Source: Nemertoderma westbladi (taxonomy: Eukaryota > Animalia > Xenacoelomorpha). Taken from it: DNA of 64,000 nt. The first letter of the stretch is position 1. Each line of letters begins with the position of its first letter. Shown here piece after piece: positions 11,470 through 54,634 of the stretch. The DNA is taken from the NCBI GenBank assembly GCA_032718475.1, contig JAUCBJ010007177.1, positions 1 through 64,000 on the forward strand. The letters are read 5' to 3'. The notes beneath the pieces were generated by a model that had not been told where the DNA came from, ran no database searches, and was given only the letters and a program-made list of their open reading frames with translations. A program made the translations under genes and the position numbers.

Positions 11470-13262
11470 GAACCACCAAATCCCAGAGCCACTAGTTCCC
11501 AACCAGAACCAATAGTTCCCAACCAGAACCAATATAGTTCCCAACCAGAGCCACTAGTTCCCAACCAGAACCAATAGTTCCCAACCAGAGCCACTAGTTC
11601 CCAACCAGAACCAATAGTTCCCAACCAGAACCAATATAGTTCCCAACCAGAGCCACTAGTTCCCAACCAGAACCAATAGTTCCCAACCAGAACCAATAGT
11701 TCCCAACCAGAGCCACTAGTTCCCAACCAGAACCAATAGTTCCCAACCAGAACCAATATAGTTCCCAACCAGAGCCACTAGTTCCCAACCAGAACCAATA
11801 GTTCCCAACCAGAGCCACTAGTTCCCAACCAGAACCAATAGTTCCCAACCAGAGCCACTAGTTCCCAACCAGAGCCACTAGTTAAAAACCAGAGCTACTA
11901 GTTCCCAACCAGAGCCACTAGTTCCCAACCAGAGCCACTAGTTAAAAACCAGAGTTACTAGTTCCCAACCAGAACCAATATAGTTCCCAACCAGAGCCAC
12001 TAGTTCCCAACCAGAACCAATAGTTCCCAACCAGAACCAATATAGTTCCCAACCAGAGCCACTAGTTCCCAACCAGAACCAATAGTTCCCAACCAGAGCC
12101 ACTAGTTCCCAACCAGAACCAATAGTTCCCAACCAGAACCAATATAGTTCCCAACCAGAGCCACTAGTTCCCAACCAGAACCAATAGTTCCCAACCAGAG
12201 CCACTAGTTCCCAACCAGAACCAATAGTTCCCAACCAGAGCCACTAGTTCCCAACCAGAGCCACTAGTTAAAAACCAGAGCTACTAGTTCCCAACCAGAG
12301 CCACTAGTTCCCAACCAGAGCCACTAGTTAAAAACCAGAGCTACTAGTTCCCAACCAGAACCAATATAGTTCCCAACCAGAGCCACTAGTTCCCAACCAG
12401 AACCAATAGTTCCCAACCAGAACCAATATAGTTCCCAACCAGAGCCACTAGTTCCCAACCAGAACCAATAGTTCCCAACCAGAGCCACTAGTTCCCAACC
12501 AGAACCAATAGTTCCCAACCAGAGCCACTAGTTCCCAACCAGAACCAATATAGTTCCCAACCAGAGCCACTAGTTCCCAACCAGAACCAATAGTTCCCAA
12601 CCAGAGCCACTAGTTCCCAACCAGAACCAATAGTTCCCAACCAGAGCCACTAGTTCCCAACCAGAGCCACTAGTTAAAAACCAGAGCTACTAGTTCCCAA
12701 CCAGAGCCACTAGTTCCCAACCAGAGCCACTAGTTAAAAACCAGAGCTACTAGTTCCCAACCAGAACCAATATAGTTCCCAACCAGAGCCACTAGTTCCC
12801 AACCAGAACCAATAGTTCCCAACCAGAGCCACTAGTTCCCAACCAGAACCAGTAGTTCCCAACCAGAGCCACTAGTTCCCAACCAGAGCCACTAGTTAAA
12901 AACCAGAGCTACTAGTTCCCAACCAGAACCAATATAGTTCCCAACCAGAGCCACTAGTTCCCAACCAGAACCAATAGTTCCCAACCAGACCCACTAGTTC
13001 ACAACCAGAGCCACTAGTTCCAAACCAGAGCCACTAGTTCCCAACCAGAGCCACTAGTTCCAAACCAGAAGCAATAGTTCATAACCAAAACAATTAGTTC
13101 CCAACGAGAACCAATAGTTCATAACCAAAACAATTAGTTCCCAACCAGAACCAATAGTTCATAACCAAAACAATTAGTTCCCAACCAGAGCCACTAGTTC
13201 CCAACCAGAGCCATTAGTTCCCAACCAAAACCACTAGTTGCCAACCAGAACCAATAGTTCCC
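11470..13262. repeat. 20-bp tandem array (TAGTTCCCAACCAGAACCAA / TAGTTCCCAACCAGAGCCAC, with 22-bp variants), ~88 copies, overlapping the ZYG11 stop codon
   Basis: Seen directly. On the minus strand the unit matches the last codons of the CDS (ELLVLVGN*). Confidence 0.97.
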
Positions 13263-15519: not shown

Positions 15520-15561
15520 TATTATATTGGTATTATTATATGATAGTCTGATAGTGCAATA

Positions 15562-15752
15562 GTCTGCAAGATACCGGTAACTATAACTAAAGCTAGTCTG
15601 CAAGACTGCAAGACTGCAAGATACCGGTAACTATAACTAAAGCTAGTCTGCAAGACTGCAAGACTGCAAGACTGCAAGATACCGGTAACTTTTTTACAAT
15701 AGGCCTACAATAAAAAATTACCAGATTACAGGATTACGATACCGGTAACTAA
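15562..15752. repeat. Short local duplications (GTCTGCAAGATACCGGTAACTATAACTAAAGCTA; (GACTGCAA)n) upstream of the zyg11 ATG
   Basis: GATACCGGTAACT occurs four times between 15570 and 15750. Confidence 0.85.
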
Positions 15753-17700: not shown

Positions 17701-17789
17701 TTTTGTCCTTATAAAACATAAAGTGTTTTTATAGAGGAGTGAACTGTTATTGATGGCGTGGTTATTTGTAATTATTGCCATTTCTAATT

Positions 17790-20438
17790 CAGTCGATCAC
17801 ACTTCACCCGATCTTCCAATTATAATTGGAGGGGATTTTAACTGCCGGATAGACCAGGGTTCCCGTGGTTCTGACCTGACAGATAGCTTAGAGAGTATTG
17901 GTTTTATCTTAATCAATGATCCCTTGAAACATACATACATTTCCCCCCAAGGGGTAAGCACCATTGATTTATTTTTTGTTAAGATTACAACCCCAATGAG
18001 CCCACCTCCGTTTACCCTTATTGATGTGAACCCTATCAGAAAACACCAACGTGTTGTGCTGTCCCTCACCCTACCTGGTTCCACTACAGTACCAAATATT
18101 CGCCCAGAACTACCTTCGCGCAACTTAAAAATAACTAAACTGAAAGACAATCCTCTTCTTACTACGATACAGGATCTTTTAACAGAAAGTAGTAACATAG
18201 TTGAGGCAAACCACCTTCTTGCAAAAGTTTTTGCTGACTCTACTATTCCGAAGCAAGTGAACTACAATCATCATGGCAAATTGTGGTTTGACAATGATTG
18301 CCGCTTACTCAAATCACAGGTTATGATACTTTTTTATAACAGGGAAATCTCAGAACACGACAAGGATCTTTACTGGAATGAAAGAAAAGTTTACAAGAAA
18401 CTCCTCAAATCAAAGCGACTGAAGCACGAGGAAAAATGTTTACTCGACAAAATTGCAAAAGCTGAGATTACTCCATGGACTCTGACAAAAGAATGTAAAC
18501 CAAATCACGTAGCCCCAATTGCGATGGATGTACTGGAATCTCATTTTGAAAATCTTCTAAGTAAATCAAAAGACCCTCCGAATATACCGCCTATTCCAGA
18601 GACATCAACTGCTGAATTAGAAAACAACGAATGGTACTACAGTCCTACATGTATAACTCGTGAAGAAGTTGAGGCTGCAATTAAACACACAGGAAATCGT
18701 AAAGCATGTGGTTCAGATAATATATACTACGAACACTTGAAACACTCTTTGCCTCTAATCCTACATATTTTGGTACTCCTCTTTAATACCTGCTTAAATA
18801 TTCGTTCGCTTCCACGTACTTGGATGTATAGTATTGTCAAGATACTCTATAAAGGTAGAGGTGCGATCACATTGCCAGATAATTACCGTGGGATTGCACT
18901 CCTCAGCGTTTTATTAAAGATCTTTACTTCTATAATAAACAAACGGATATTAAATAAAATCCGCTGGTTGATACCCGAAGAGCAGTTTGGATTTCTACCT
19001 GGTAAATCAACTCTGGATGCATTAAATCGATTGATCTCTGACATAAATTCATTGATTGACGCGAATGGTAAAGTTTATGTTGTATTTGTTGATTTCCGAA
19101 AGGCTTTTGACTCCATCAGTCGGAAAATTTATCTTAACAAGCTGTTCAACGATTTCGGTGTTAAAGGCAAACTTTACAATGTTATCAAGTATCTTCTAAA
19201 TGCAAACTACATCCAGGTGTTTGATGGTCTTCGCCTTTCAAAGAAAATACGCCAGATTATCGGATTCCTACAAGGGGACTGTTTCTCCCCTACGAGTTTC
19301 ATTTTGTATATCGCCGACCTTGTTGTTGCTTTGCGGTCAGCTACTGCCTTCTTGAAATCTATATTTTTCGCTGATGATTTAGCCTTCTACTCATCAAACC
19401 CCAAAGAGATCCAAGATAGTTTAAATAACCTTCGTAAATGGTGCAAAGATAATGCTCTTGAGGTGAATCTCGTTAAAACAAAAATTGTTAAATTTCGAAG
19501 AGGAGGCCGTTTAGCACTCTATGATAACTTCTATTATGATGGCCAACTGGTAAAGATTGTGATAAATATGAGTATTTGGGTGTAGTACTCCAGCCTACTT
19601 TGACGTTCACGAAACACATAAAAGCAAAGAAAGAAAAAGCCCACGCTGCCATTGGCTGCCTGAAAAATCTCCATCTAGTCTCCGTGGAAACGGGAATCAA
19701 AATTTTTAAAATGAAAATCGCCCCTATGGCATATTACGCCCTCTCGGAAATAGGATCGAAACTTACACTACCTCAACTAAAATAATTGGATAAAATTAAA
19801 TCTACCTTTCTTAAACGGCTCCTTGGACTCCATATTTCTTCATCATCTACTCTAGCTTTAAAATTAACTCATCAAGAAACCTTCACAAACGACATCCTTC
19901 TAACATCACCAGGTATTTTAAGCGCTGAAATTCTAGAACAATACATCATCTTCAGATCGGATCGAAATGCAAATTTCATTACTGAGAATTACAATTTAGG
20001 ACCGGCCTTCACTTCAACAACATGGACTCACAGTAACCAAAGAAACAGGCACCTCATAACAAGAACGACATCTCACGGTTTTCACTATAAACTCTGCAAC
20101 AATTCAACTTTCCACACCCCGTGTCCGGACTGCACCTGTAAATTTTGTCAAAACTCAGCCAGCGATCGTTACCACGCCCTATCGTGTGCTCAATGTCCGC
20201 CTATCGCCACCTTATCTATCATCCCATAAAACTACATTTTAAAACGTGCTTTTTTAAACTCTCATACCGGTAATATTTTAATGTACATATTTAATTATTT
20301 CATTTACTCCGTCTGTGAATTTGGAGTGTATAGAATAACCTCTAATTCAGTGTATTTAAATGTAAATTGTTGATTTCGTTAGTTATTTGTTTTATTTTAT
20401 AATTTTAATAAAAAGAGAGTTCAATTCAATTCAATCCA
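17790..20438 (+). mobile_element. 5'-truncated non-LTR retrotransposon ORF2 (APE endonuclease end, RT, Cys/His-rich C-terminus), frameshifted
   Basis: IIGGDFNCR and STIDLFF (APE); NYRGIALL, EQFGF, FVDFRKAFDS, GFLQGDCFSP and FADDL (RT). Frameshift near 19570 and in-frame stop at 19783-19785. (TTCAA)n tail. Confidence 0.95.
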
Positions 20439-21531
20439 ATGCAGAGCTATACCGAGCTAAAACCGTCCTATACCAAACTATAGTGATGCCATACAGATAA
20501 CAAGTGCAACCAATTATGGTAGACAATTTAGTCTCCCCCTTCCCTTGTCAAGGGGTTAGCATATTAAATTTATTATTGCCCTCTCGTGAACAAAAGCAAT
20601 AAAAAGTAATGGAGAATCGATAAGAATCATCGGCCTATTTCCTTTGTAAACTATTTTTGAACTCTAAACATTATTAACACATTTTAGCGCGCGCAACGCA
20701 TGAAGTGAAGAATATGTAGTCTTAGCGTATGCCACTACATAGAGTACTGTATACAGGTATTCTGTAGGATACATTACTGTTGAAAGTATTTGATTGTTGT
20801 GGGTTGTATATTGAACATACCGCATTGTCTTAATTTAGTACTGAACCGCTTGGAATACAGTACGTAGGCCTACTAATGATAAACGTCGTATAGGCATAGT
20901 TATGGGTAGAACCTACGCGTAGTTATACGTAGCACCCCCGCGTAGCACCTACGCGTAGTTAATGTTAAAACTCTGAAACTTGTGATGTATGACCCAATGT
21001 TGCGAACTACGCGTAGGTCGAAAAGATTTACCATGCCTGTGCGTTGCCAACACTACAGCACTACCTGACAGCCTGACTACTTCCTGTCAGCTAATCAATA
21101 ACCAGTATTTTCATGTATTTGTAGGCCTAACTTATCCTCTTCTCTGCTTGTTGCGCCGCATCGGCGCTACAGAAATGGAATGCCATAGAACGCAACAGAA
21201 TGTACAAGCCAATGGAATTAGAGTGGAATGTATAAACCAATCTTAGGTTGTTGCGCTGTTGCGCCAATGTTGTTCATTGGTTACAGGGCTGTTGTGCTGT
21301 TGCGCCGTTGCGCTGTTGCGTGTTTTCCAGGAAGCCATATTGTAGAATAGATTAAAAGAGAATCAACAGTCAGATATATGCTATAGGACCTAATGCTACA
21401 TGACCTAATGTGCCAGGACCTAAAGCTACAGGACCTAACGCTACAGGACCTAACGCGCCAGGACCTAAAGCTACGGGACCTAACGCTACAGGACCTAAGG
21501 TATACCGATTTGGACCTAACGCTACATTACC

Positions 21532-21670
21532 GTAAGGAGACCTCAAGTATTCACTCCGTTGTTGTTGTTGTTTTTGTTGGGGTTGTTGTTGTTGTTAATT
21601 TCTCGCCAGCTTTTGGTATTAGGGATATGGCACGGCCCCAGTAGCTCAGTTGGTAGAGCGTGGGATAAGA
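21532..21670 (+). mobile_element. Helentron/DINE-like non-autonomous element fragment (continues from 15918-15939)
   Basis: TTTTAGGTCCGCGTAGCGAG + ACCTCAAGTATTCACT, (GTT)n microsatellite and TAGCTCAGTTGGTAGAGC. An uninterrupted relative lies at 63170-63300. The family assignment is inferred. Confidence 0.55.
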
Positions 21671-21679
21671 CTTGGTTAG

Positions 21680-23100
21680 AAACTCACCTGCATTCTTGTG
21701 ATGACTGTAAAGTAAGATTTACAGAATCAAGTGGTGCCATGGAGTCCAATATCATGCTTGAAATATTTAATAGATCTAAAGATAAAATTTATGAACCAGA
21801 CCATAGTCTTCGTTTCAACGAATTTGTCAGTGATGGGGATACAAATAGTTTTAACGAAATTTGTCGGGTTTACGGTTTACGGGGTCGCTGCTACAGTAAT
21901 TGTGATAAATATCTATCTATGACAGAGGAAGAAAAGATCAAATTCAATCGTTCTGTCGAGGGTCAGAAATATTGGTCATTGGTGTGATCATGATCGCGCC
22001 TGCCAGTGTTTGAAATAAGTCGACTGTATCAACCACGTCCAAAAGCGCTTGTATAAGGCTCTAAGAGACATTTCGTCTGAGACGAAAGGAAAATTGGGGG
22101 ATAATAAGTTCATTGGAGGGGCCCCCGACAGGTTAACTCACACAAACTGTAAAATTCTCTCTGACTATTATGGTAAAGCTATATACAGTAACTGCAAAAA
22201 GCTTGATGGTGAGAATGGTGAGTCAAACCAAATGCATGTGAAACGCATGAAAACGGCTATTCTACAGTAGCAAGTTTTAGACACTGCATCCTCGGTAAAT
22301 CTTCAGCTGAAAGGCATTTACTATTGTCCTATAGGACCAATTTCATGGTGTTCATTCCATCGAACAGGGAGAGAATCACCTCAAAAATCCCACTTCTTGG
22401 ATCCGATTTTTCAAGGCCTCTTACTTCCAGTATACCAGCGATTCTATGAGGACAAACTTCTTGAAAGGTGTTTACCTGGTTACACTCATGTTTACCTGGT
22501 TACACTCATGTTTACCTGGTTACACTCATGTTTACCTGGTTACCTGGTTACACTCATGTTTACCTGGTTACACTCATGTTTACCTGGTTACACTCATGTT
22601 TACCTGGTTACACTCATGTTTGCCTGGTTACCTGGTTACACTCAAAACCAGAATGAGTCATTTCACTCATTGATTGTTTTTCAAAACCCAGATTCTTTGG
22701 AAAGCAACAGGTAAAGCTGGCTGTGTTGAGCAGCATTGCATATTTTAATTCTGGAGTTGCTGGCAGACAGGAAACATTGAATCGACTATCAACCCAGAAC
22801 CATGCGGTTTCCTCTGTCAATTTGTCTGTTCGAAAAGACCTCAAACGAGCTTCAAAGGCTATAGGAACAGCTGCAAAAAGAACTAAGCATAAGCCAACTG
22901 TTATTGCTAAAGCAATCCATGACTTATCAAATCATAATCAACTTCAAACTGCGAGCCAGCAAAGAAAGAGGAAGCTGGCAATAAAGCGAAAGCTAAAAGG
23001 ATCAGGAAGAGAGATACACCCATCCTAAGTAAACAATCGCAATAAAGCAACAAAGCAGGAAACAAACTATAAGAAATCCATCTACAAGTAACGCTTATGT
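21680..23100 (+). pseudogene. Decayed DDE transposase (Mutator-like/Kolobok-like family)
   Basis: Motifs across broken frames: SSGAME, FVSDGDTNSF, DCINHVQKRL, RLT...DYYGKAI, CP.GP.SWC, CLPGYTQNQNESFHS. Contains stops and frameshifts. Confidence 0.8.
22469..22643. repeat. 20-bp tandem repeat TGTTTACCTGGTTACACTCA (~8 copies) inside the transposase CLPGYTQ codons
   Basis: Seen directly; the reading frame resumes with QNQNES after the array. Confidence 0.95.
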
Positions 23101-25961: not shown

Positions 25962-26360
25962 CTAAATAATTTCCAAATAACATTCGGGACCTATATCAAT
26001 GGGTATTGTTAGCTTACTTGGAAGGTCGTAAGTTTTTTCAAAGGGCATTGTGGCGAGAAAACTAATCCCCAGGGTGAAGGGGCAGAGGATAATCTTAGCC
26101 AACCTGAGTCGATTGCGTAACTTAGTTATTCGGGCTATATGTGTATCCAAGGCATTCATAGCATCTCTAGTGTCGGAAGCTATAACTAGGTACAAATGCC
26201 GAACATTGATACCAGCAGTTCTGCCAGAAACAGCGTTCCATATCTCTGTGTCCCGGTATATTCTAGAACTCTTGAGATTGTAAACGACCACAGGTAGAGC
26301 GCAGTGTAGGTAGTGAGTCATTAATGTGTGGAGATCTCGGTCAGTTAGGTCCAGACGCAT
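25962..26360 (-). CDS. Hypothetical 132-aa protein with a C-terminal hydrophobic stretch
   Basis: ATG-to-stop ORF with higher GC than its AT-rich flanks. AATAAA lies ~60 nt after the stop (TTTATT at ~25899). No homology recognised. Confidence 0.5.
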   Translation of the reverse strand: MRLDLTDRDLHTLMTHYLHCALPVVVYNLKSSRIYRDTEIWNAVSGRTAGINVRHLYLVIASDTRDAMNALDTHIARITKLRNRLRLAKIILCPFTLGISFLATMPFEKTYDLPSKLTIPIDIGPECYLEII

Positions 26361-26756
26361 TTCCCGAAATATTCCGGTAGACAGACTTCCTGCTTGGGAA
26401 GCAGCGCAGTAAGCAGACGCTCGTAGACCACCGACAGCCTAGAGGAGCGATTCTATTGGTCAAACACGGTTTCCTTGCAGTGTTGTGATAATAATTAATA
26501 TAAAACTATTTCAATAAAACCAAAATAATAAATAAAATATACTAGTTTATTTATTTACTAATTTATATATTATTTATAGTAAATATATTGTAAATTTCGA
26601 CGGTCAGAAAATGATTGCAATTAAAATAATATATATGAATATCATATTTAACAGCGGACGATATATATATTTTTGTAAGGTAACGAAGTTAAAATAATGA
26701 TTGTAAACAACATACAAATCCAATGTGTAGTTTATTTAAAGTAACTAAAGTAATAA

Positions 26757-27188
26757 TTAATTTTTCAACAAACTGCTCGCTCGCATTATTAAGCCAATAG
26801 AATCACTCCCCTTTATGTGGTGAACTCTTTTCATAATATCAGTAGGACCGCGCATTTGTGGTGCGGTGCAATTGTTAACCGCTAACTCCATTGGGTCCTT
26901 CCTATCCTTAATAAACGCAGATCCGTAACACCATTCCTTCTGGTCCTCAACCCGCCAACGTTCCACGATGCTGGCACCAGGTCGACCTTGCGCGGGACTA
27001 CCAGCTGAACGACCCTGTGACTCCCTGGAAGCAAGTTGACCTTTCGCTCTGCTAACACCGGGATAAGTTGCACCACGTTGGGACCCAATAGGAACTTGTT
27101 GCTGGGGCAACGGTGGCGTATATACCTCACGGGTTGGGAATTCCCGTTCTTCTATAAATCCCTGATTTTGGTATTCCTGTTTTTCCAT
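26757..27188 (-). CDS. Hypothetical ~143-aa protein (MEKQEYQNQ...; low-complexity P/Q/G/R N-terminal half)
   Basis: GC-elevated ORF preceded by a pyrimidine-rich acceptor-like sequence TTTTATTTTCTCTGAAG (~27218-27234). It may be a terminal exon. Confidence 0.5.
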   Translation of the reverse strand: MEKQEYQNQGFIEEREFPTREVYTPPLPQQQVPIGSQRGATYPGVSRAKGQLASRESQGRSAGSPAQGRPGASIVERWRVEDQKEWCYGSAFIKDRKDPMELAVNNCTAPQMRGPTDIMKRVHHIKGSDSIGLIMRASSLLKN

Positions 27189-28527
27189 AAATTTTACAAT
27201 TAATTTCTCAATTAGGCCTTCAGAGAAAATAAAAATAATAAAATACTCAACTAACAAATTAATCATATAAATTTGAAATATAGATTGTAAGACATTGTGC
27301 GTCCCTGGCCTAAACGGCCGAAGAAAACTCAACTTTACTTTTATATGAAAACGTTACAGAATATTATTTGTTATTATTATAACTGATTGTAATTTAGACA
27401 GAAAATCTGATTGAATTATTACACTTCGCAGAATAGAGAAATGTATTGTTAATTAGCTAAATAACAACAATAATGGTAATGAACTGATAAAATAGGTTAA
27501 GAGGCAATGTTAATTAGCTGAAATCAAATATCAATCCAAATCACTTAGACGCTCGACTTTGGTCAATAAAGTATTTAGCGGAAGTAAAGAAAATGCGGTC
27601 AAGTTAGAAACCAACCATATTACACCGCGAACGATGACATCCTGTGATAGGTGAGATGAAAAGTGACATTTACTTACAGTTTATATACAGAGCTATTAAT
27701 TTTATAAATAATAATATATAATTTTTATAAATTTTTCACGGAAATAAATTGATGGACCTGTTATCCGTATGGCCTACAACAGGCAGGCTATTTATAGCTG
27801 ATACTGTGGAAGGGTGGCTGCAGTTGAGTGGTTTAATTGCATGCAAGACAGCAATTATACGGGTTGTTGCAGCTGTTGCAAATTACAAACGGAATTGAAT
27901 TTATTTATCTTACTCAAAAGCAAAAGGACAAACACACTTTTGATAAATACGAGAAATCATTTAACAGCCGTGTTTTTATCACGACTAATAACATCTCATC
28001 AGATCAATGTCTTTAACTCGATAAAGCCAAAACCGTACTTATTCGCCATTTCGTCAAATACTCGCCACATACTCTTACCGGCGCCTGATAAACTTTTGTA
28101 ACGGTTTTGTCACCAAATGACTCTACCATACTATTAATATTTAGTAACATATATAATTATTATATATTTTTAGATTCATAAATTTCGGCTCCTTTTGGCT
28201 TCAGTTTCACAACGGATATTGGTGCGCTATCTCTATAACTATCGATATTCTCATTGGTTACCCTCCAAATATCCCAGCTGACCGACAATGGCCAGGTTCT
28301 AGAATTAATGTATCCATGCAAGGCAATGGTGCCAGTTAACTTTATGCTATATATCAGTCCGGAATATCAGTATTCCAGTATTCATTCATGTAAGTTTAGA
28401 AATCTTACCAGCAAACATGAAATTTACATTCATACAGTAATTATTATTAACCCATAAATATCTGTTTTCGAATTAGCTGCTGCACATAGAGCACTGCTCA
28501 GATCGACGTAGTTGATCGCAGCTAATC

Positions 28528-35291: not shown

Positions 35292-35505
35292 TTAGGCATA
35301 CATATCCTCACGGTCTCCAATCCCCATAGTTTCGCCCTCCTCCAAGGAACTGAAGTTGAGGAAGTGATTGGCTCGGTGAATTTCGTTATAGAATTCTTTG
35401 GGATTCGCGAGTTGTAGTTCGTACCGCATGGTGGCGTCGTGACGGACTCCCATAAAGTTGTAATTCCAGGAACCGATAGCTGGAACCATAAAGAAGCCCA
35501 GGAAC
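35292..35505 (-). CDS. PRPF8: PRP8 terminal coding exon (FLGFFMVP...DREDMYA*)
   Basis: Near-identical to the Prp8 C-terminal tail. Acceptor TTTCCACAG|G; phase fits the previous exon. Confidence 0.97.
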
Positions 35506-35626
35506 CTGTGGAAATAAACAAGTTAGAACGAGGGATGGATAAATTAGATAGAGCCTCATGCCTTTAAAATATGCTGAGAAAACTAACAATTTCGAAAAAA
35601 TATACTAACAAATCTAAAAGTCTAAC

Positions 35627-35868
35627 CTGTCAGACAGTAGCAACTGCACCCGCTCATAGTGGCTAGGCAAGTATCCCTTAGGTTGGTTACCGGTATCTCG
35701 GTTGTTTCTTCCCCACTCGTAACCGGAAGGTGTCAGTTTATACGAGCAGAGACTAACAGACCCTGGTGTGAAACTAACAGTAACAACTATTGTTCGCTCG
35801 CCGTCCCACTGGGTATTGTCCGCCATAATCTTGGCGTGGGTTGTGACATCTTGGGAGGATAGTTGCAC
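35627..35868 (-). CDS. PRPF8: PRP8 exon ([17 protein letters not shown]...LLSDR)
   Basis: Jab1/MPN domain sequence. Acceptor TTTCAG|GTG, donor AG|GTTAGA; 242 nt. Confidence 0.97.
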
Positions 35869-36105
35869 CTGAAATATGGGAAATAAAATTGAGTGGAATT
35901 CACCACTATAGTAGAGATCATTATCAGATATCTTTATCAATTAATGGACAGATAGGAGGGAGCCAAACCGAAGGCAAACTCTAGTGGAAGTTAGTAATAC
36001 CTGCAGATACAGAATATATACAATTATTATTTTATGAGCAAATTATATTTAAAAGAATGAACATAATATGACCAATACATAACATAATGATACCGTCTCG
36101 CCGAC

Positions 36106-36246
36106 CTGTTCATTTGGCTGTGTGTGGATCCAACCCAGAGGTTCCATTTCCTTAAGGTATTCATGTTCCGGTAATAGGTTGGGTAGATGTACTGTTTGGT
36201 GGGTACCCCACTGTGGTACCATTACTATACAGTGGATCTCTTTAAC
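36106..36246 (-). CDS. PRPF8: PRP8 exon ([47 protein letters not shown])
   Basis: Manual translation matches Prp8; 141 nt in frame. Acceptor TTTAG|GTT, donor CAG|GTCGGC (weak). Not in the ORF track. Confidence 0.93.
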
Positions 36247-38980
36247 CTAAATAGTAACAGGTTGGGTAGATGTAATGTTTGGTGGGTACCCCACTGTGGT
36301 ACCATTACTATACAGTGGATCTCTTTAACCTAAATAGTAACAGGTTGGGTAGATGTACTGTTTGGTGGGTACCCAACTGTGGTACCATTACTATACAGTG
36401 GATCTCTTTAACCTAAATAGTAACAGGTTGGGTAGATGTACTGTTTGGTGGGTACCCCACTGTGGTACCATTACTATACAGTGGATCTCTTTAACCTAAA
36501 TAGTAACAGGTTGGGTAGATGTAATGTTTGGTGGGTACCCCACTGTGGTACCATTACAATACAGTGGATCTCTTTAACCTAAATACTAACAGGTTGGGTA
36601 TAGATGTACTGTTTGGTGGGTACCCCACTGTGGTACCATTACTATACAGTGGATCTCTTTAACCTAAATAGTAACAGGTTGGGTAGATGTAATGTTTGGT
36701 GGGTACCCCACTGTGGTACCATTACTATACAGTGGATCTCTTTAACCTAAATAGTAACAGGTTGGGTAGATGTAATGTTTGGTGGGTACCCCACTGTGGT
36801 ACCATTACAATACAGTGGATCTCTTTAACCTAAATACTAACAGGTTGGGTAGATGTACTGTTTGGTGGGTACCCCACTGTGGTACCATTACTATACAGTG
36901 GATCTCTTTAACCTAAATACTAACAGGTTGGGTAGATGTACTGTTCGGTGGGTACCCCACTGTGGTACCATTACTATACAGTGGATCTCTTTAACCTAAA
37001 TAGTAACAGGTTGGGTAGGTGTACTGTTTGGTGGGTACCCCACTGTGGTACCATTACTATACAGTGGATCTCTTTAACCTAAATAGTAACAGGTTGGGTA
37101 GATGTACTGTGTGGTGGGTACCCCACTGTGGTACCATTCCTTTTCAGTGGATATCTTTAATCTAAATAGTAACAGGTTGGGTAGATGTACTGTGTGGTGG
37201 GTACCCCACTGTGGTACCATTCCTTTTCAGTGGATATCTTTAATCTAAATAGTAACAGGTTGGGTAGATGTACTGTTTGGTGGGTACCCCACTGTGGTAC
37301 CATTCCTTTTCAGTGGATATCTTTAATCTAAATAGTAACAGGTTGGGTAGATGTACTGTGTGGTGGGTACCCCACCGTGGTACCATTCCTTTTCAGTGGA
37401 TATCTTTAATCTAAATAGTAACAGGTTGGGTAGATGTACTGTGTGGTGGGTACCCCACTGTGGTACCATTCCTTTTCAGTGGATATCTTTAATCTAAATA
37501 GTAACAGGTTGGGTAGATGTACTGTTTGGTGGGTACCCCACTGTGGTACCATTACTATACAGTGGATCTCTTTAACCTAAATAGTAACAGGTTGGGTAGA
37601 TGTACTGTTTGGTGGGTACCCCACTGTGGTACCATTACTATACAGTGGATCTCTTTAACCTAAATAGTAACAGGTTGGGTAGATGTACTGTGTGGTGGGT
37701 ACCCCACTGTGGTACCATTCCTTTTCAGTGGATATCTTTAATCTAAATAGTAACAGGTTGGGTAGATGTACTGTTTGGTGGGTACCCCACTGTGGTACCA
37801 TTCCTTTTCAGTGGATATCTTTAATCTAAATAGTAACAGGTTGGGTAGATGTACTGTTTGGTGGGTACCCCACTGTGGTACTAATACTATACAGTGGATC
37901 TCTTTAACCTATATAGTAACAGGTTGGGTAGATGTGCTGTTTGGTGGGTACCCCACTGTGGTACCATTCCTTTTCAGTGGATCTCTTTAACCTAAATAGT
38001 AACAGATTGGGTAGATGTACTGTTTGGTGGGTACCCCACTGTGGTACTATTACTATACAGTGGATCTCTTTAACCTAAATAGTAACAGGTTGGGTAGATG
38101 TACTGTTTGGTGGGTACCCCACTGTGGTACCATTACTATACAGTGGATCTCTTTAAACTAAATAGTAACAGGTTGGGTAGATGTACTGTTTGGTGGGTAC
38201 CCCACTGTGGTACCATTACTATACAGTGGATCTCTTTAACCTAAATAGTAACAGGTTGGGTAGATGTACTGTTTGGTGGGTACCCCACTGTGGTACCATT
38301 CCTTTTCAGTGGATCTCTTTAACCTAAATAGTAACAGGTTGGGTAGATGTACTGTTTGGTAGGTACCCCACTGTGGTACCATTCCTTTTCAGTGGATCTC
38401 TTTAACCTAAATAGTAACAGGTTGGGTAGATGTAATGTTTGGTGGGTACCCCACTGTGGTACTATTACTATACAGTGGATCTCTTTCACCTAAATAGTAA
38501 CAGGTTGGGTAGATGTACTGTTTGGTGGGTACCCCACTGTGGTACTATTACTATACAGTGGATCTCTTTCACCTAAATAGTAACAGGTTGGGTAGATGTA
38601 CGGTTTGGTGGGTACCCCACTGTGGTACCATTACTATACAGTGGATCTCTTTCACCTAAATAGTAACAGGTTGGGTAGATGTACTGTTTGGTGGGTACCC
38701 CACTGTGGTACCATTACTATAAAGTGGATCTCTTTAACCTAAATAGAAACAGGTTGGGTAGATGTGCCGTTTGGTGGGTGCCCCACTGTGGTACCATTAC
38801 TATACACATACAGTGGATCTAGTTAACCTAAATAGTAACAGGTTGGGTAGATGTACTGTTTGGTGGGTACCCCACTGTGGTACCATTACTATACACATAC
38901 AGTGGATCTAGTTAACCTAAATAGTAACAGGTTGGATAGATGTAATGTTTGGTGGGTAGTACCCTGTGGTACCATTACTA
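36247..38980. repeat. 83-bp tandem array (~33 copies) made of the PRP8 acceptor plus exon 5' part, filling an intron
   Basis: Minus-strand unit: GTTAAAGAGATCCACTGTATAGTAATGGTACCACAGTGGGGTACCCACCAAACAGTACATCTACCCAACCTGTTACTATTTAG. Confidence 0.97.
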
Positions 38981-38988
38981 AGTCTCAC

Positions 38989-39264
38989 CTGGGGGTTGTC
39001 GGAAGGACTAACACCATACAGGTATCCTGCGATTTGGGTCCGTAAGTCGGATATGCAGATAAACTTCTTGAGAATGTTTTTTGGCAGAATGTAGGTGAAT
39101 CCAGATTCCTTGATGTCGTCGCTGGAGACATAGATATGGTTGGTTCGGAGATGGAGATTGGTGCAGCTGATAGCGCGAACCCGCCACTCGGTACGAGAAG
39201 AAAAGGTCTGTGACTCGTAGTTACTCGTTGTCGCTGTAATTATCTCGTCACCGTGTTTATTTAC
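38989..39264 (-). CDS. PRPF8: PRP8 exon ([33 protein letters not shown]...GVSPSDNPQ)
   Basis: Manual translation, 276 nt (92 codons). Acceptor TTTAG|GTA, donor CAG|GTGAGA. Not in the ORF track. Confidence 0.96.
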
Positions 39265-39691
39265 CTAAACCAATAGAGTTTATTCACAATCACAAAAACA
39301 GTTTATTTGTCTATAGAAATAGTTTATTTACTTACACAAATAAATGGTTTTTATTACCTACACAGATAACGAATTTATTTACCTATACAAAAATAGTTTA
39401 TTTCCCTAAACGCAAAATAGTTTATTTAAATTACAATACAATCAATCACATACAATTAAAGAGTATGGAAAACATAAATTGTTTCGAATATTTATAGTCT
39501 AAAGAAACGCCTTGGTGCTGCCAGGCTCAACAATGTTAATACCTCAACTATAATACCGGTAGTAAATTGTGTAATTGTGCGGTCACTAATAACCTTAATT
39601 GGTTGATGTGTCTATTAAACATATGTTAAAAAAATGGTTAAAATGGTTAATAATTATATGTTCTCTTTTTCACAGTATTTTATTTTTTACC

Positions 39692-44147: not shown

Positions 44148-44345
44148 AGTTTTTGTCGTTGTAGAAGTTAACTGACTCTGCTCTTTGGTCTGTTTCTCGA
44201 TTTCAGCTATCTGTTGCCGTTGCTGACTAGGTGCCGATATCTCCATTCCCAGGATTATATCACGAATCTCGCTCTGTGTTAATGAACCTATATTCACATT
44301 ATTCTTCTTCCCGTAGTCCGCCAGGATTAAATCCTTTAGTTGCAC
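44148..44345 (-). CDS. PRPF8: PRP8 exon ([18 protein letters not shown]...[12 protein letters not shown])
   Basis: Matches the Prp8 RNaseH-like/linker region; 198 nt. Acceptor ATTAG|GTG, donor ACT|GTAAGT. No further upstream exon was recognised in the window. Confidence 0.97.
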
Positions 44346-44429: not shown

Positions 44430-47400
44430 ACTCTTGATTGCAACCCAAACCTTATTACTAGACCACATAATCGAATGTACAGATAGCCTTCGGACGAAAT
44501 ACCCACCAGCCTCCACCATAATATTGGGTGATTACAATCACACACTTAATGACCAAATGTTATTTTCACAATTAGATCTATCTCAGCTTCTTAAAATAAT
44601 GTCCAACATTTGGAAAGAACACACTAGATAAAATATCAACAGATATAACTGAACATATCGCCCACAACGGGCCTACAACCTTGGCTCCTATCGGCCCATC
44701 AGAAGGTCACCGTGTGGTGTTGTGGATACCCACAATGATCATCCCAGAAAAAACATCCAAGACTATTATCACCACAACTCATCGTCCCTTCAGAGATTCA
44801 AATATTACATCGTTTGGACAGTGGATCACCCAATACACATGGGAACTCTTAACAATTACTGACCCAGATGTCGCCACTATGCAATTAAATGATATACTTG
44901 TCCAGCAATACCCCCACCACTTCCCAGAAGTAAAAATTATGAAAAAAGTTAAGGATAAGCCTTGGATGACATCTAGGATTCGACTACTAATCACACAAAA
45001 GCAGCGGGCATTCCAAAGAAACCAAGCCATAAAATATAAAACACTACGAACATCACTGAATTTGGAAATAAATGCAGCCAAATCATCATGGTATGGTAAA
45101 ACAATATCACATATGGGATGCTTACAGCCCGGGCAGTGGTATCGCTCCATTGCCAAATTAATCAATTAAACGCCAAAACCATTGAACCTCCAAGTGTGTT
45201 TGGCTGGAAACAGTGGGCAACAATTTGATAATCAAACCATTGCAAATTCTGTAAATAATTTTTTTGCTGACATTTGCAACCAACTACCCCAATTAGACTC
45301 CCTGGCTTCATACCTGACACCAAACCACCAGTGATAGATAGAAGGGAGGTGTATGATATCCTCAAAAATATCAACGTAACAAAGGCAATATCACCTGCGA
45401 TATACCAAAACCGTCCAATAAAAGATTTTGCATGTGAGATTAGTGTGCCTCTAACCCACATTTACAATATATCTATTCAGACTGGCATTTTTCCATCACT
45501 ATGGAAGGAATGTTATGCTACACCTGCACCGAATATTTAACCCCCAGCTACACCTGTACCGAAAATTTAACCTCCAAAGATGTTTGGTCAATATCATTCA
45601 CTAAAACTTTCTCAAAGGCTTTTGAACAGCTGGTAGTAAAATGGATAATTAAAGATATAAAGGACAACGTCGACAAGCGCCAATTCGGTAACATGAACCA
45701 CAGGTCCACGTCCTTGTACTTGATCATTCTTCTGGACGATATACTGAAAGCTCTTGAAACACCAGGCACCATAGTAAATGTAATGACATATTACTTCTCC
45801 AAGGCTTTCGACCGCATAGACCACACAATTCATAGTAAATAAATGTAATGACATTCTCCAAGGCTTTCGACCGCATAGACCACACAATTACTATTAACAA
45901 ACTACTCAAGATGGGGTCTACGTCCATGGTTAGCGCGGTGGCTTTGCAGTTTCCTGTCTTACCGTACCCAATCCACGGTATACAAAGGTTCTACTTCCAA
46001 AGGGCGTACTCTTAAGTTCAGGGGTTCCCCATGGGACTATCGTAGGTTTATAATTTTTCCTGTGCCAGATAAATGACGCTATGGAGCAAATTAAAGAACG
46101 CCTTAAGTTTGTAGACGACTTGTCAGTGTATGAGATTTTACAAATTCAATTGACCAGCTATTTGACTCAAATATACAACACTACACGGATATACTAATAG
46201 AATGGGCAAACGATAGTAACATGAAACTCAATCCGGTGAAATGTAAACAAATGACCTTCTACAAAGCAAAACGACCAATTGTACTTGCACAAGTCAATAT
46301 TTGTGGAACAAATGTGGATGTAGTTGGCAATGTAAAACTTCTCGGTGTTACAATATCCGCCGATCTCAAATGGAATATCCACATAACTGACACAATAAAA
46401 CGATCAGCTAAACGAATGTACATGTTACATATATTAAAAAAATGCAAAGCATCGCGGAAAGACATGGTAGCCATATACATCTCTCATATTCGGACCGTTC
46501 TAGAATATTGCACCGCGGTTTGGCATTCTAGTATCACCAAGCAACTCTCAGACGCCCTAGAAAGAGTACAGAAAAGAGCAATGCGAATCATCTTCGGTAT
46601 CCATTATAATAGTTATGAACAGGCACTACAGTCCGGGGGTTACCTACATTGAAGGACAGACGCGAAAAACTGTGTTTAAATTGTGCAAAAACCATTTATC
46701 TACACCACAGATACTTACTGTAAAACAATTTATCTACACCACAGATACTTACTGTAAAACCATTTATCTACACCACAGATACTTACTGTAAAACAATTTA
46801 TCTACACCACAGATACTTACAGTAAAACAATTTATCTACACCACAGATACTTACTGTAAAACAATTTATCTACACCACAGATACTTACTGTAAAACAATA
46901 TATCTACACCACAGATACTTACTGTAAAACCATTTATCTACACCACAGATACTTACTGTAAAACCATTTATCTACACCACAGATACTTACTGTAAAACAA
47001 TTTATCTACACCACAGATACTTACTGTAAAACCATTTATCTACACCACAGATACTTACTGTAAAACAATTTATCTACACCACAGATACTTACTGTAAAAC
47101 CATTTATCTACACCACAGATACTTACTCTAAAACCATTTATCTACACCACAGATACTTACTGTAAAACCATTTATCTACACCACAGATACTTACTGTAAA
47201 ACCATTTATCTACACCACAGATACTTACTGTAAAACCATTTATCTACACCACAGATACTTACTGTAAAACCATTTATCTACACCACAGATACTTACTGTA
47301 AAACAATTTATCTACACCACAGATACTTACTGTAAAACCATTTATATACACCACAGATACTTACTGTAAAACCATTTATCTACACCACAGATACTTACTG

Positions 47401-50400
47401 TAAAACCATTTATCTAGACCAAAGATACTTACTGTAAAACCATTTATCTACACCACAGATACTACTGTAAAACAATTTATCTACACCACAGATACTTACT
47501 GTAAAACCATTTATCTACACCACAGATACTTACTGTAAAACAATTTATCTACACCACAGATACTTACTGTAAAACCATTTATCTACACCACAGATACTTA
47601 CTGTAAAACCATTTATCTACACCACAGATACTTACTGTAAAACAATTTATCTACACCACAGATACTTACTGTAAAACCATTTATCTACACCACAGATACT
47701 TACTGTAAAACCATTTATCTACACCACAGATACTTACTGTAGTAAGTGTCTACTACACCACAGATACTTACTGTAAAACAATTTATCTACACCACAGATA
47801 CTTACTGTAAAACCATTTATCTACACCACAGATACTTACTGTAAAACCATTTATCTACACCACAGATACTTACTGTAAAACCATTTATCTACACCACAGA
47901 TACTTACTGTAAAACAATTTATCTACCCAAAGATACTTACTGTAAAACAATTTATCTACACCACAGATACGTACTGTAAATCCATTTATCTACACCACAG
48001 ATACTTACTGTAGTAAGTGTCTACTACACCACAGATACTTACTGTAAAACAATTTATCTACACCACAGATACTTACTGTAAAACAATTTATCTACACCAC
48101 AGATACTTACTGTAAAACCATTAATCTACACCACAGATACTTACTGTAAAACCATTTATCTACACCACAGATACTTACTCTAAAACCATTTATCTACACC
48201 ACAGATACTTACTGTAAAACCATTTATCTACACCACAGATACTTACTGTAAAACCATTTATCTACACCACAGATACTTACTGTAAAACCATTTATCTACA
48301 CCACAGATACTTACTGTAAAACCATTTATCTACACCACAGATACTTACTGTAAAACAATATATCTACACCACAGATACTTACTGTAAAACCATTTATCTA
48401 CACCACAGATACTTACTGTAAAACCATTTATCTACACCACAGATACTTACTGTAAAACCATTTATCTACACCACAAATACTTACTGTAAAACCATTTATC
48501 TACACCACAGATACTTACTGTAAAACCATTTGTCTACACCACAGATACTTACTGTAAAACCATTTATCTACACCACAGATACTTACTGTAAAACCATTTA
48601 TCTACACCACAGATACTTACTGTAAAACAATTTATCTACACCACAGATACTTACTTAAAACCATTTATCTACATCGCAGATACTTACTGTAAAACCATTT
48701 ATCTATACCACATATACTTACTGTAAAACCATTTATCTACACCACAGATACTTACTGTAAAACCATTTATCTACACCACAGATACTTACTGTAAAACCAT
48801 TTATCTACACCACAGATACTTACTGTAAAACAATTTATCTACACCACAGATACTTACTGTAAAACAATTTATCTACACCACAGATACTTACTGTAAAACC
48901 ATTTATCTACACCACAGATACTTACTGTAAAACCATTTATCTACACCACAGATACTTACTGTAAAACCATTTATCTACACCACAGATACTTACTGTAAAA
49001 CCATTTATCTATACCACAGATACTTACTGTAAAACAATTTATCTACACCACAGATACTTACTGTAAAACAATTTATCTACACCACAGATACTTACTGTAA
49101 AACAATTTATCTACACCACAGATACTTACTGTAAAACCATTTATCTACGCCACAGATACTTACTGTAAAACCATTTATCTATACCACAGATACTTACTGT
49201 AAAACCATTTATCTACACCACAGATACTTACTGTAAAACCATTTAAATACACCACAGATACTTACTGTAAAACAATTTATCTACACCACAGATACTTACT
49301 GTAAAACCATTTATCTACACCACAGATACTTACTGTAAAACAATTTATCTACACCACAGATACTTACTGTAAACCCATTTATCTACACCACAGATACTTA
49401 CTGTAAAACCATTTATCTACACCACAGATACTTACTGTAAAACAATTTATCTACACCACAGATACTTACTGTAAAACCATTTATCTACACCACAGATACT
49501 TATTGTAAAACCATTTATCTACACCACAGATACTTACTGTAAAACCATTTATATACACCACAGATACTTACTGTAAAACCATTTATCTACACCACAGATA
49601 CTTACTGTAGTAAGTGTCTACTACACCACAGATACTTACTGTAAAACAATTTATCTACACCACAGATACTTACTGTAAAACCATTTATCTACACCACAGA
49701 TACTTACTGTTAAATCCATTTATCTACACCACAGATACTTACTGTAAAACCATTTATCTACACCACAGATACTTACTGTAAAACAATTTATCTACACCAC
49801 AGATACTTACTGTAAAACAATTTATCTACACCACAGATACTTACTGTAAATCCATTTATCTACACCACAGATACTTACTGTAGTAAGTGTCTACTACACC
49901 ACAGATACTTACTGTAAAACAATTTATCTACACCACAGATACTTACTGTAAAACCATTTATCTACACCACAGATACTTACTGTAAAACCATTTATCTACA
50001 CCACAGATACTTACTGTAAAACCATTTATCTACACCACAGATACTTACTGTAAAACAATTTATCTATACCACAGATACTTACTGTAAAACCATTTATCTA
50101 CACCACAGATACTTACTGTAAAACCATTTATCTACACCACAGATACTTACTGTAAAACCATTTATCTACACCACAGATACTTACTGTAAAACAATATATC
50201 TACACCACAGATACTTACTTAAAACCATTTATCTACATCGCAGATACTTACTGTAAAACCATTTATCTATACCACAGATACTTACTGTAAAACCATTTAT
50301 CTACACCACAGATACTTACTGTAAAACCATTTATCTACACCACAGATACTTACTGTAAAACCATTTATCTACACCACAGATACTTACTGTAAAACAATTT

Positions 50401-51800
50401 ATCTACACCACAGATACTTACTGTAAAACAATTTATCTACACCACAGATACTTACTGTAAAACCATTTATCTACACCACAGATACTTACTGTAAAACCAT
50501 TTATCTACACCACAGATACTTACTGTAAAACCATTTATCTACACCACAGATACTTACTGTAAAACCATTTATCTATACCACAGATACTTACTGTAAAACA
50601 ATTTATCTACACCACAGATACTTACTGTAAAACAATTTATCTACACCACAGATACTTACTGTAAAACAATTTATCTACACCACAGATACTTACTGTAAAA
50701 CCATTTATCTACGCCACAGATACTTACTGTAAAACCATTTATCTACACCACAGATACTTACTGTAAAACCATTTATCTATACCACAGATACTTACTGTAA
50801 AACAATTTATCTACACCACAGATACTTACTGTAAAACAATTTATCTACACCACAGATACTTACTGTAAAACAATTTATCTACACCACAGATACTTACTCT
50901 AAAACCATTTATCTACACCACAGATACTTACTGTAAAACCATTTATCTACACCACAGATACTTACTGTAAAACCATTTATCTACACCACAGATACTTACT
51001 GTAAAACAATTTATCTACACCACAGATACTTACTGTAAAACCATTTATCTACACCACAGATACTTACTGTAAAACCATTTATCTACACCACAGATACTTA
51101 CTGTAAAACCATTAATCTACACCACAGATACTTACTATAAAACCATTTATCTACACCACAGATACTTACTGTAAATCCATTTATCTACACCACAGATACT
51201 TACTGTAGTAAGTGTCTACTACACCACAGATACTTACTGTAAAACAATTTATCTACACCACAGATACTTACTATAAAACCATTTATCTACACCACAGATA
51301 CTTACTGTAAAACCATTTATCTACACCACAGATACTTACTGTAAAACAATTTATCTACACCACAGATACTTACTGTAAAACCATTTATCTACACCACAGA
51401 TACTTACTGTAAAACCATTTATCTACACCACAGATACTTACTGTAAAACCATTTATCTACACCACAGATACTTACTGTAAAACAATTTATCTACACCACA
51501 GATACTTACTACCTCCATTGCGATCTGAAAGTAGAAACCAAAAATGGAACTCGGAAATGACAATAATATTACGTTACCAATAGCTAAAACTGATAGAAAC
51601 TCAACAATCCCGTAGATGGTCAGACTAATGAATAGTGCAAAATCACATTAACGGCCATCCGCAAAAGATAAGCAAACTACCATGACTCGCCCCACATGCC
51701 TGGCAATATACGTATGTGCTGCCGGCCACTATCTCACACATTATTGGTGTTTAACTCTGTATTTCATATAATTATTATTTTTTATTTAATTTTAATTTAA
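44430..51800 (+). mobile_element. Decayed CR1/L2-group LINE ORF2, interrupted near its 3' end by the 34-bp array
   Basis: IILGDYN, KPWMT, RQFG, FSKAFDRIDH, FVDDL, MKLNPVKCK, KLLGVTI and LERVQKRAMRII across frameshifts. It resumes ...RYLLPPLRSE after 51510. Confidence 0.9.
46686..51510. repeat. 34-bp tandem array (GTAAAACCATTTATCTACACCACAGATACTTACT), ~142 copies
   Basis: Period read directly (acagat at 46741 and 46775). Confidence 0.98.
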
Positions 51801-53567: not shown

Positions 53568-54256
53568 CTCTCACCCCCGAATTTAATTTCTTTCCTACCA
53601 CAGTAGAAATGAAATACAATACAATGAGATTTACATCGTTGCTAAGCAACGAGCTGCAGGGTACTCTAACAATCCCAGTTCGCCATATACCGCAGCAACA
53701 TTAGTCTATTGCTATTAGTGTGGTAAGCCATGTCGTTTCTAGCCTGGAAGGACCTGGTGACTGGTCGTGGTCATTGCGAGTTTTATAAACAGGCAAATAG
53801 GGGGATGATTTCAAAGGTTAGGTTAATTGGTTAACTAACTAAGGTTAGGTGAAACCATTATTTTTCTGACTACACTCAAAGGCAGTCACGTTCAGTCACA
53901 GTCAGACAGTAGTACCCTGGTAGGTACCCCCCTGTAGTACCGGTACATTCATTACCAGTCACGTTTTAGCTTGTATCTGAACAAGGCCTTGTATTTTACA
54001 TACTGTAACCTACTTGAATTAGAATTCGAATTTGCATTGCATTGCTGCATTGCCGTAGTTACTAGCTTGCACCCGTAGCGGTACCGTCAGACCGTACTGC
54101 CGCAGAACTACCACACCGTACGCGTACTGAACTATATAGGCCTACGGCTGTACGGAATACGGATATAGGCCCACTGATGCGCTGAGTAGCGAGTAGCCCT
54201 ATTCTCTAACCGTACAATTTGAATTTGCTAATTTCTACCGGGATAGCTGTGTTATA

Positions 54257-54634
54257 ATGGCGGGGGCTGTTGCGCGGGCGGCTGGTAAAGCGTGGAACAA
54301 AGTTCTCGATCGTGTCGAGGCGGTTCTACCCGAAAAACTCCAAAAAATCTGGGTCCATCCGGCCGGACCAAAGACCGTGTTCTTCTGGGCGCCGACCTTC
54401 AAGTGGGGGTTGGTGATAGCGGGGATTGCGGATATAGCCCGACCAGCGGACAAACTGAGTGCGTCCCAGTCTACAGCGCTGGCAGCCACAGGGACTATCT
54501 GGTCTAGGTACTCCCTAGTTATCATACCGGTTAACTACAATCTATTCAGTGTGAATGTGTTCGTAGCTGCGACCGGATACTTCCAACTCGCGAGGATATA
54601 CAACCATAGAAAGAATTTACCAAAGGAAGTCTAG
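54257..54634 (+). CDS. MPC2: Mitochondrial pyruvate carrier 2, 125 aa, intronless
   Basis: W.HPAGPKTVFFWAPTFKWGLVIAGIADIARPADKLS..QS.AL.ATG.IWSRYSLVIIP.N..LFSVN.FV is the MPC2 signature. AATAAA at ~54755; CpG-rich upstream region. Confidence 0.97.
   Translation: MAGAVARAAGKAWNKVLDRVEAVLPEKLQKIWVHPAGPKTVFFWAPTFKWGLVIAGIADIARPADKLSASQSTALAATGTIWSRYSLVIIPVNYNLFSVNVFVAATGYFQLARIYNHRKNLPKEV

Follow-up and report, generated by a model that had tools for sequence, protein, structure and literature searches.

The closest described systems are the mirage minisatellites of the lancelet Amphioxus, tandem duplications of an intron end together with the start of the next exon, many of which keep AG/GT with splicing described as undisturbed, and which have been proposed as a source of introns (PMC3087553); a second account agrees that lancelet mirages do not disturb splicing (PMC3902484). 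The reported hosts, Adh3, the globins BflGb6 and BflGb9, troponin C and PGBD5, carry tandem copies of the intron 3' end and exon 5' start, with partial AG/GT retention, concerted evolution and diverged edge copies (PMC3087553, PMC3902484). Splice sites are reiterated elsewhere too. In CBS 844ins68, a 3' splice site at an intron/exon junction is duplicated and the distal copy is reported to be chosen (PMC4479818, PMC1802585), and in F7 IVS7 and other minisatellites the splice site recurs as identical intronic pseudo-sites while the exon-adjacent one is used (PMC1557585). A direct AG/GT juxtaposition is also found at recursive ratchet points, described in flies as conserved, generally stronger donors of long introns, the outcome depending on donor competition (PMC8605326), and at dual-use AGGT sites in the human UBC tandem repeats, which are reported to be weak, weaker than single-use sites, and nevertheless to splice, stochastically among the tandem sites (PMC10809524). 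Finally, the Rogers model, in which introns are gained through tandem duplication, as described for ATP2A1 (PMC3265369) and potato RdRp (PMC4974935), likewise derives an intron from a neighbouring exon at AG/GT.

In the window analysed here (the whole stretch of DNA, 64,000 bases), the 2,742-nt intron between exons b and c of a PRP8 gene is almost entirely an array in which its 3' splice site, together with the start of the next exon, recurs head to tail 33 times. Judged from its sequence, the array is of an already described repeat type, the lancelet mirage minisatellite: the unit spans the host intron-exon boundary with the true exon as its last copy, many but not all units keep AG/GT (AG in 33/33; GT in 24/32 internal units), and block-shared variants with diverged edges speak for concerted evolution. 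It has 33 copies where 3-6 are reported for BflGb6, and, compared with the mirages of the same report, its unit is only 7 nt intronic, the array fills the whole intron and the host is PRP8 (PMC3087553). Normal splicing and length instability are reported for the Amphioxus arrays (PMC3087553), whereas the PRP8 array is known from the sequence of one haplotype. CBS 844ins68 has one extra copy, with G runs reported to promote the distal site, compared with 32 extra copies in PRP8 (PMC4479818, PMC1802585); the F7 IVS7 minisatellites lie on the donor side and the PRP8 array on the acceptor side (PMC1557585). Unlike the ratchet points of PMC8605326, the PRP8 array is without GT conservation among its copies and without +5 G and sits in a short intron; unlike the UBC isoforms, which are reported to differ by whole ubiquitin monomers (PMC10809524), its 83-nt unit shifts the frame. 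Against the Rogers model as described in PMC3265369 and PMC4974935, the 7-nt end of the unit agrees with the end of the upstream exon at AG only.

The PRP8 intron and its 83-bp array

The host of the array is the PRP8 gene on the minus strand. PRP8 is essential and encodes a core splicing protein. Its exons in the window and the parts of the array intron are, from upstream to downstream:

44148..44345, minus strand: PRP8 exon a, 198 nt, human residues 1981-2046, donor ACT/GTAAGT (tblastn and gene model)
38989..39264, minus strand: PRP8 exon b, 276 nt, ending in ...DNPQ at human residue 2138 (homology and gene model)
38981..38988, minus strand: real 5' splice site, CAG/GTGAGACT, the sole stretch at the intron start (8 nt) not plainly copied from the exon
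38917..38980, minus strand: truncated and most diverged first unit, a copy of exon +20 to +76 followed by TATTTAG, with the branch-like variant described below
36247..38916, minus strand: 32 units in tandem, of which 29 measure 83 nt, two 89 nt and one 85 nt
36106..36246, minus strand: PRP8 exon c, the true exon, 141 nt, 47 codons, JAB/MPN domain (PF01398), its start being copy 33
35627..35868, minus strand: PRP8 exon d, 242 nt, PF08084, donor CAG/GTTAGA at 35626
35292..35505, minus strand: last PRP8 coding exon with stop codon (tblastn and gene model)

Upstream of the array, exon b aligned with human PRP8 residues 2048-2138 (E 3.5e-51). The four GT-AG introns measure 4,883, 2,742, 237 and 121 nt from exon a to the last exon, and the spliced five-exon model encodes 356 amino acids uninterrupted by a stop, with identity to P0016 at 301 of 355 aligned residues. 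All five exons in the window begin with GT, and CAG/GT occurs at three of the four mature junctions. One AG/GT site lies outside the array, within the 237-nt intron after exon c, where an acceptor-like TTCTGTATCTGCAG is followed by GTATTA (36000-36030, minus strand).

The 83-bp unit comprises the first 76 nt of exon c and the 7-nt acceptor end TATTTAG; its consensus is identical to the true exon at 75 of these 76 nt and translates as a 25-residue peptide. Tandem Repeats Finder (TRF) gave a period of 83 with a score of 4843, 33.7 copies and 95% matches, and the arrangement is not a chance one. Exon copies account for all but about 239 of the 2,742 intron nucleotides, the first 72 nt of the intron being the 8-nt donor and the truncated unit. 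On the minus strand, 32 internal acceptors run from 38917 to 36330 ahead of the true acceptor at 36247. Because each unit copies the start of exon c together with the acceptor end, the true exon c is copy 33; and because exon c begins with GT, as part of a valine codon, AG/GT recurs in the units as the junction itself was copied. The repeated AG/GT is thus a copied exon junction and no separate signal, a cause that the first-pass annotation missed when it interpreted each unit as a potential GT...AG mini-intron.

The copies form subfamilies, with variants shared in blocks and the 5' edge units most altered. Such a repeat in PRP8 could be tolerated if this PRP8 copy were a non-functional partial duplicate, or its copy number could be an assembly error, and tblastn did find no PRP8 exon upstream of 44345 within the 64-kb window. 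However, splicing of the five exons through canonical GT-AG introns gives a C-terminus that is conserved and intact, and units with derived variants shared in blocks and 23 distinct sequences among the 32 are unlike collapse or duplication in assembly. We therefore regard this explanation as very improbable.

Variation among the copies and the regenerated donors

The first-pass annotation had proposed that the units form a chain of recursive splice sites and that stepwise re-splicing makes the array self-removing and thereby tolerated. Its reading of the unit details holds. Internal acceptors mostly read TTTAG/GTTAAAG (19/32), the others continuing after AG with GTTAAC (2), GTGAAAG (3), ATTAAAG (7) or TTT (1), which amounts to AG/GT in 24/32, AG/AT in 7/32 and AG/TT in 1/32. 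Exon b ends in CAG at 38989, and its joining to a GT copy gives CAG/GT, similar to the real donor at 35626, to which the annotation had likened it and which indeed reads CAG/GTTAGA. The AG/ATT and AG/TTT copies do break the chain as dead ends. The variant copies are:

38489..38655, minus strand: three AG/GTGAAAG copies, with acceptors at 38655, 38572 and 38489
38157..38159, minus strand: copy 10, AG/TTT, the first stall point for a strict ratchet
37161..37825, minus strand: AG/ATT subfamily, 7 copies, with an in-frame stop five codons in and the predicted acceptor hairpin lost

Two GTT copies lie among the ATT copies (37825-37161). When the three longer units are excluded, 22 of the 83 positions vary across the remaining 29 units, and codon changes comprise 5 synonymous, 15 missense and 1 stop, where the neutral synonymous share is 0.22; the decay of the copies thus looks neutral. 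AG is intact in all 33 acceptors (chance P 0.54). G+1 was altered twice independently, affecting 8/32 copies, with P 0.105 for at least two changes at +1/+2, so that GT is not conserved but, if anything, changed slightly more often than expected. Comparison among the copies of the array gave no sign of GT being kept for a ratchet, and a weak test among the 32 internal acceptors gave no sign of selection purging decoy AGs. For each of the 32 internal acceptors, a premature stop follows 2-56 codons past the junction and upstream of further junctions. A role of the units as alternative or mutually exclusive exons was rejected: 5/21 codon changes are synonymous (neutral 0.22), all internal acceptors lead to a stop and the array holds no GTRAG donor, none being found when GTRAG was searched for.

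Donor strength was compared by U1 duplex energy, a crude proxy computed with the U1 5' end and no trained score. By this proxy the four real PRP8 donors gave -11.1, -7.0, -6.9 and -7.1 kcal/mol, and the regenerated donors -5.9 (GTTAAA), -8.4 (GTGAAA) and -5.6 (GTTAAC) kcal/mol, so the three GTGAAAG copies are better donors, as had been claimed. These three are the only copies to exceed the donor of exon c itself (-6.9, vs -5.9 for GTTAAA). A G at +5 is present in 4/4 real PRP8 donors vs 0/33 regenerated ones. Measured as ratchet points, the units place GT after AG in 24/32 cases, the regenerated donor is generally not stronger than the downstream donor, and AGGT is not conserved among the copies. 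Two other mature PRP8 junctions regenerate CAG/GT at similar U1 energy (-6.8 and -5.6 vs -5.9). Masking of the regenerated donor by structure was not found, its predicted unpaired probability being 0.35-0.47 vs 0.28 at the real donor.

The strict unit-by-unit ratchet was rejected, as a chain that always takes the next acceptor stalls at copy 10. As a removal route or as the cause of tolerance, the ratchet is not supported by the sequence, given GT lost in 8/32 copies, the stall at copy 10 and +5 G in 0/33. Moreover, the mature b-c junction is identical to the intermediate for some 70 nt and carries the same regenerated donor; its re-use there would skip exon c with in-frame loss of 47 JAB-domain residues, and lancelet arrays are reported to splice normally, both of which count against a self-removing array. 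Exon c skipping by this path would be a product that NMD would miss. In flies, the EJC is reported to repress donors regenerated at junctions (PMC8184009). Within the open-access library searched, no study surfaced that examined a mirage for recursive splicing.

Choice of the last acceptor and the removal route

The reading that we favour, and hold to be probable, is that the array arose as a mirage minisatellite amplified from the PRP8 intron end plus the first 76 nt of the following exon and that the intron would be removed mainly in one step, from 38988 to 36247. Growth may have occurred when the start of the exon and its copy in the intron underwent slippage or unequal crossover. The last acceptor would win as the sole one with a real donor in exon-definition range (141 nt) plus a branch-like variant that weakens the hairpin and is missing from its two nearest rivals; NMD would clear transcripts spliced by mistake to internal copies, and the regenerated CAG/GTTAAA would be mostly silent, as needed at the mature junction. 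For exon definition and for branch distance, customary ranges were applied. The variant before the true acceptor is:

36272..36276, minus strand: ATTAC branch-like motif, A at -27, from a G-to-T change at unit position 55 (motif scan and folding; putative function)

This change precedes acceptors 1, 7, 27, 28, 30 and 33, the last being the true one. Through it, the interval from -15 to -45 gains its only T-N-A branch candidate, an AG at -30 disappears, and the predicted acceptor hairpin becomes less stable (-8.8 instead of -14.0 kcal/mol). A T-N-A candidate in that interval thus precedes 6/33 array acceptors, including the true one, and 4/4 of the other PRP8 acceptors. Of the six, only the true acceptor yields an exon below 390 nt, and its two nearest rivals are without the variant; that the true acceptor carries the variant at all has a chance probability of 6/33, about 0.18, and is not significant. 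In the predicted folds, the AG of the true acceptor is fully paired (P unpaired 0.0) and the dead-end ATT copies are the most exposed (0.25-0.92). Single-unit folding was no better than shuffled (z -0.19, 0.49 and 0.43), two 137-nt folding windows gave z 0.13 and -2.02, and an acceptor-centred 58-nt window, picked after the fold had been seen, gave z -3.2 (1/200 shuffles). RNA structure as a feature of the whole unit was rejected, since only that acceptor-centred 58-nt window stood out. Control of acceptor choice by the branch variant may accordingly serve as a lead, not as a result.

How large a bias the one-step route needs was gauged with a toy model, in which one-step splicing reached the true acceptor in 3% of cases if acceptors were used uniformly and in 17% if only the variant copies were used; therefore, the bias to the true acceptor would have to be large. 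Also counting against a one-step route, the real donors are weak, three lying at -6.9 to -7.1 kcal/mol vs -8.4 for the regenerated GTGAAA. With 33 near-identical acceptors, internal acceptors or AG/GT sites might instead be used leakily and stochastically, leading to premature stops and degradation at a real cost in PRP8 output, partly salvaged by re-splicing; the uniform toy model yields 3%-59% true exon as re-splicing goes from 0 to 1. Some human donor-side minisatellites are reported to use their nearest pseudo-sites as well (PMC1557585), and stochastic splicing among tandem sites is described for UBC (PMC10809524). Against this, loss of output from an essential gene should select against decoy AGs, yet 0/32 have been lost (a weak test), and mirages in the literature are described as giving normal mRNA. 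We consider such leakage unlikely as the main account.

A recursive ladder could also be the main route, in which splicing would advance in a few jumps by way of acceptors 1, 7, 27, 28, 30 and 33, the branch-competent ones. Internal copies would re-splice with no other donor downstream, and the last copy would be kept, its own donor outcompeting the regenerated one; since a downstream donor that competes is present for the last copy alone, the internal copies could conceivably be re-spliced selectively. All five variant-bearing internal acceptors are followed by GT, forming an unbroken sub-chain that delivers 100% true exon in the toy model with perfect re-splicing, and the GT-AG intron that ends at the first acceptor is 72 nt long and bears the variant. 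The exon c donor slightly exceeds the regenerated donor in strength (-6.9 vs -5.9), which fits the donor competition described in PMC8605326, and weak dual-use AGGT sites are reported to work in UBC repeats (PMC10809524). Because the six variant acceptors are all followed by GT, a short ladder stays the main rival. However, the five of five GT has a chance probability of 0.21, +5 G occurs in 0 copies, GT is lost in 8/32 (P 0.105), re-use at the true junction would delete the 47 JAB-domain residues in frame, and fly ratchet points are described as conserved, with stronger donors and in long introns (PMC8605326), compared with 2.7 kb here. Taken together, we judge the ladder to be rather unlikely as the main route. 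The array offers a test bed in an essential gene, with 33 nearly identical acceptors distinguishable by unit variants, on which long-read RNA could show one-step use of the last acceptor vs a ratchet, and the role of the one-base branch variant.

Origin of the intron and other arrays in the window

A metagenome scan for PRP8 gave at least 597 pattern matches and at least 107 confirmed loci, of which 80 were listed, and favours loci with unbroken peptides. Among the 80 listed loci, 30 had at least one resolved intron (a few calls being doubtful), and 27 of these 30 cover residue 2138. The intron at this residue was absent in 26 of the 27 covering loci among the matches listed, none of which is known to be a close relative, and a single locus (L034, 69% identical) had the only phase-0 intron there among the matches listed; it was also missing, among the matches listed, from all 10 covering loci that have the recurrent introns at 1995, 2123, 2170 and 2216. 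This near-absence among the matches listed indicates that the intron is probably a lineage-specific gain. If it were absent in close relatives, the locus would cleanly exemplify the mirage-to-intron model as proposed in PMC3087553.

As tandem-duplication gain would have it, the intron sequence derives from the adjacent exon, all but about 239 of 2,742 nt; on the other hand, TATTTAG and the upstream exon end CCCCCAG share only AG. Two changes, both toward consensus, separate the array-intron donor GTGAGA from GTTAAA at the unit start, and one of them is common to copies 4-6. It also resembles another PRP8 donor, with 8 of the 9 first bases shared between 38980-38988 and 35618-35626 on the minus strand (GTGAGACTT and GTTAGACTT, respectively), and it is slightly favoured that the donor predates the array. 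In an alternative that we hold to be quite improbable, the intron would have been born as one 83-bp exon duplicate whose first copy was tuned to a donor (GTTAAA to GTGAGA), and would, once amplified, be removed as a six-acceptor ladder marked by a single-base branch switch; if true, PRP8 would carry a self-removing repeat in the gene of a spliceosome core protein, with intermediates barcoded by unit variants.

Exons starting with GT numbered 5/5 in PRP8 here vs 5/24 metagenome intron positions among the matches listed (Fisher P 0.002), after three doubtful positions of 27 were dropped, with one base pair chosen where loci differed and one position shared. Compared with the intron-bearing loci listed, three of the five PRP8 intron positions here were found in none and one in a single locus, and the four recurrent positions are missing here. 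This pattern suggests a lineage-wide intron turnover that may favour GT-starting exons.

Seven large arrays occupy 29,237 of the 64,000 bases, and local amplification is common in the window. Other arrays, genes and mobile-element remains are:

39265..39428, minus strand: decayed older array, about 7 copies of a 23-bp unit made of the acceptor end and the first ~10 nt of exon b
11483-13262: 20-bp array, about 88 copies, starting in the last codons of the ZYG11-like ORF and covering the stop codon region
46688-51510: 34-bp array, about 142 copies, interrupting a LINE-like fragment
9112-9966, minus strand: methyltransferase, a single unbroken ORF
13234-15630, minus strand: ZYG11/ZER1-like gene, a single unbroken ORF
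17735-19585, plus strand: endonuclease-reverse transcriptase (LINE-like) ORF
21520-21987, plus strand: Mutator-like transposase fragment
54197-54634, plus strand: mitochondrial pyruvate carrier, a single unbroken ORF

No Pfam match was found for the open frames at 25962-26438 (minus strand, 158 aa) and 26757-27353 (minus strand, 198 aa). The ZYG11-like ORF has three matches at 34-36% identity, one each from an insect, a sea spider and a starfish. Should PRP8 extend past the window, one of its introns, over 19 kb long, would enclose the gene for the mitochondrial pyruvate carrier. The 34-bp array is in frame with the LINE-like fragment at its left edge and therefore appears to have been amplified from local sequence. 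In the upstream copies of the 23-bp array, AG/GT is kept in 2/7, AG or GT being lost in the other 5/7.
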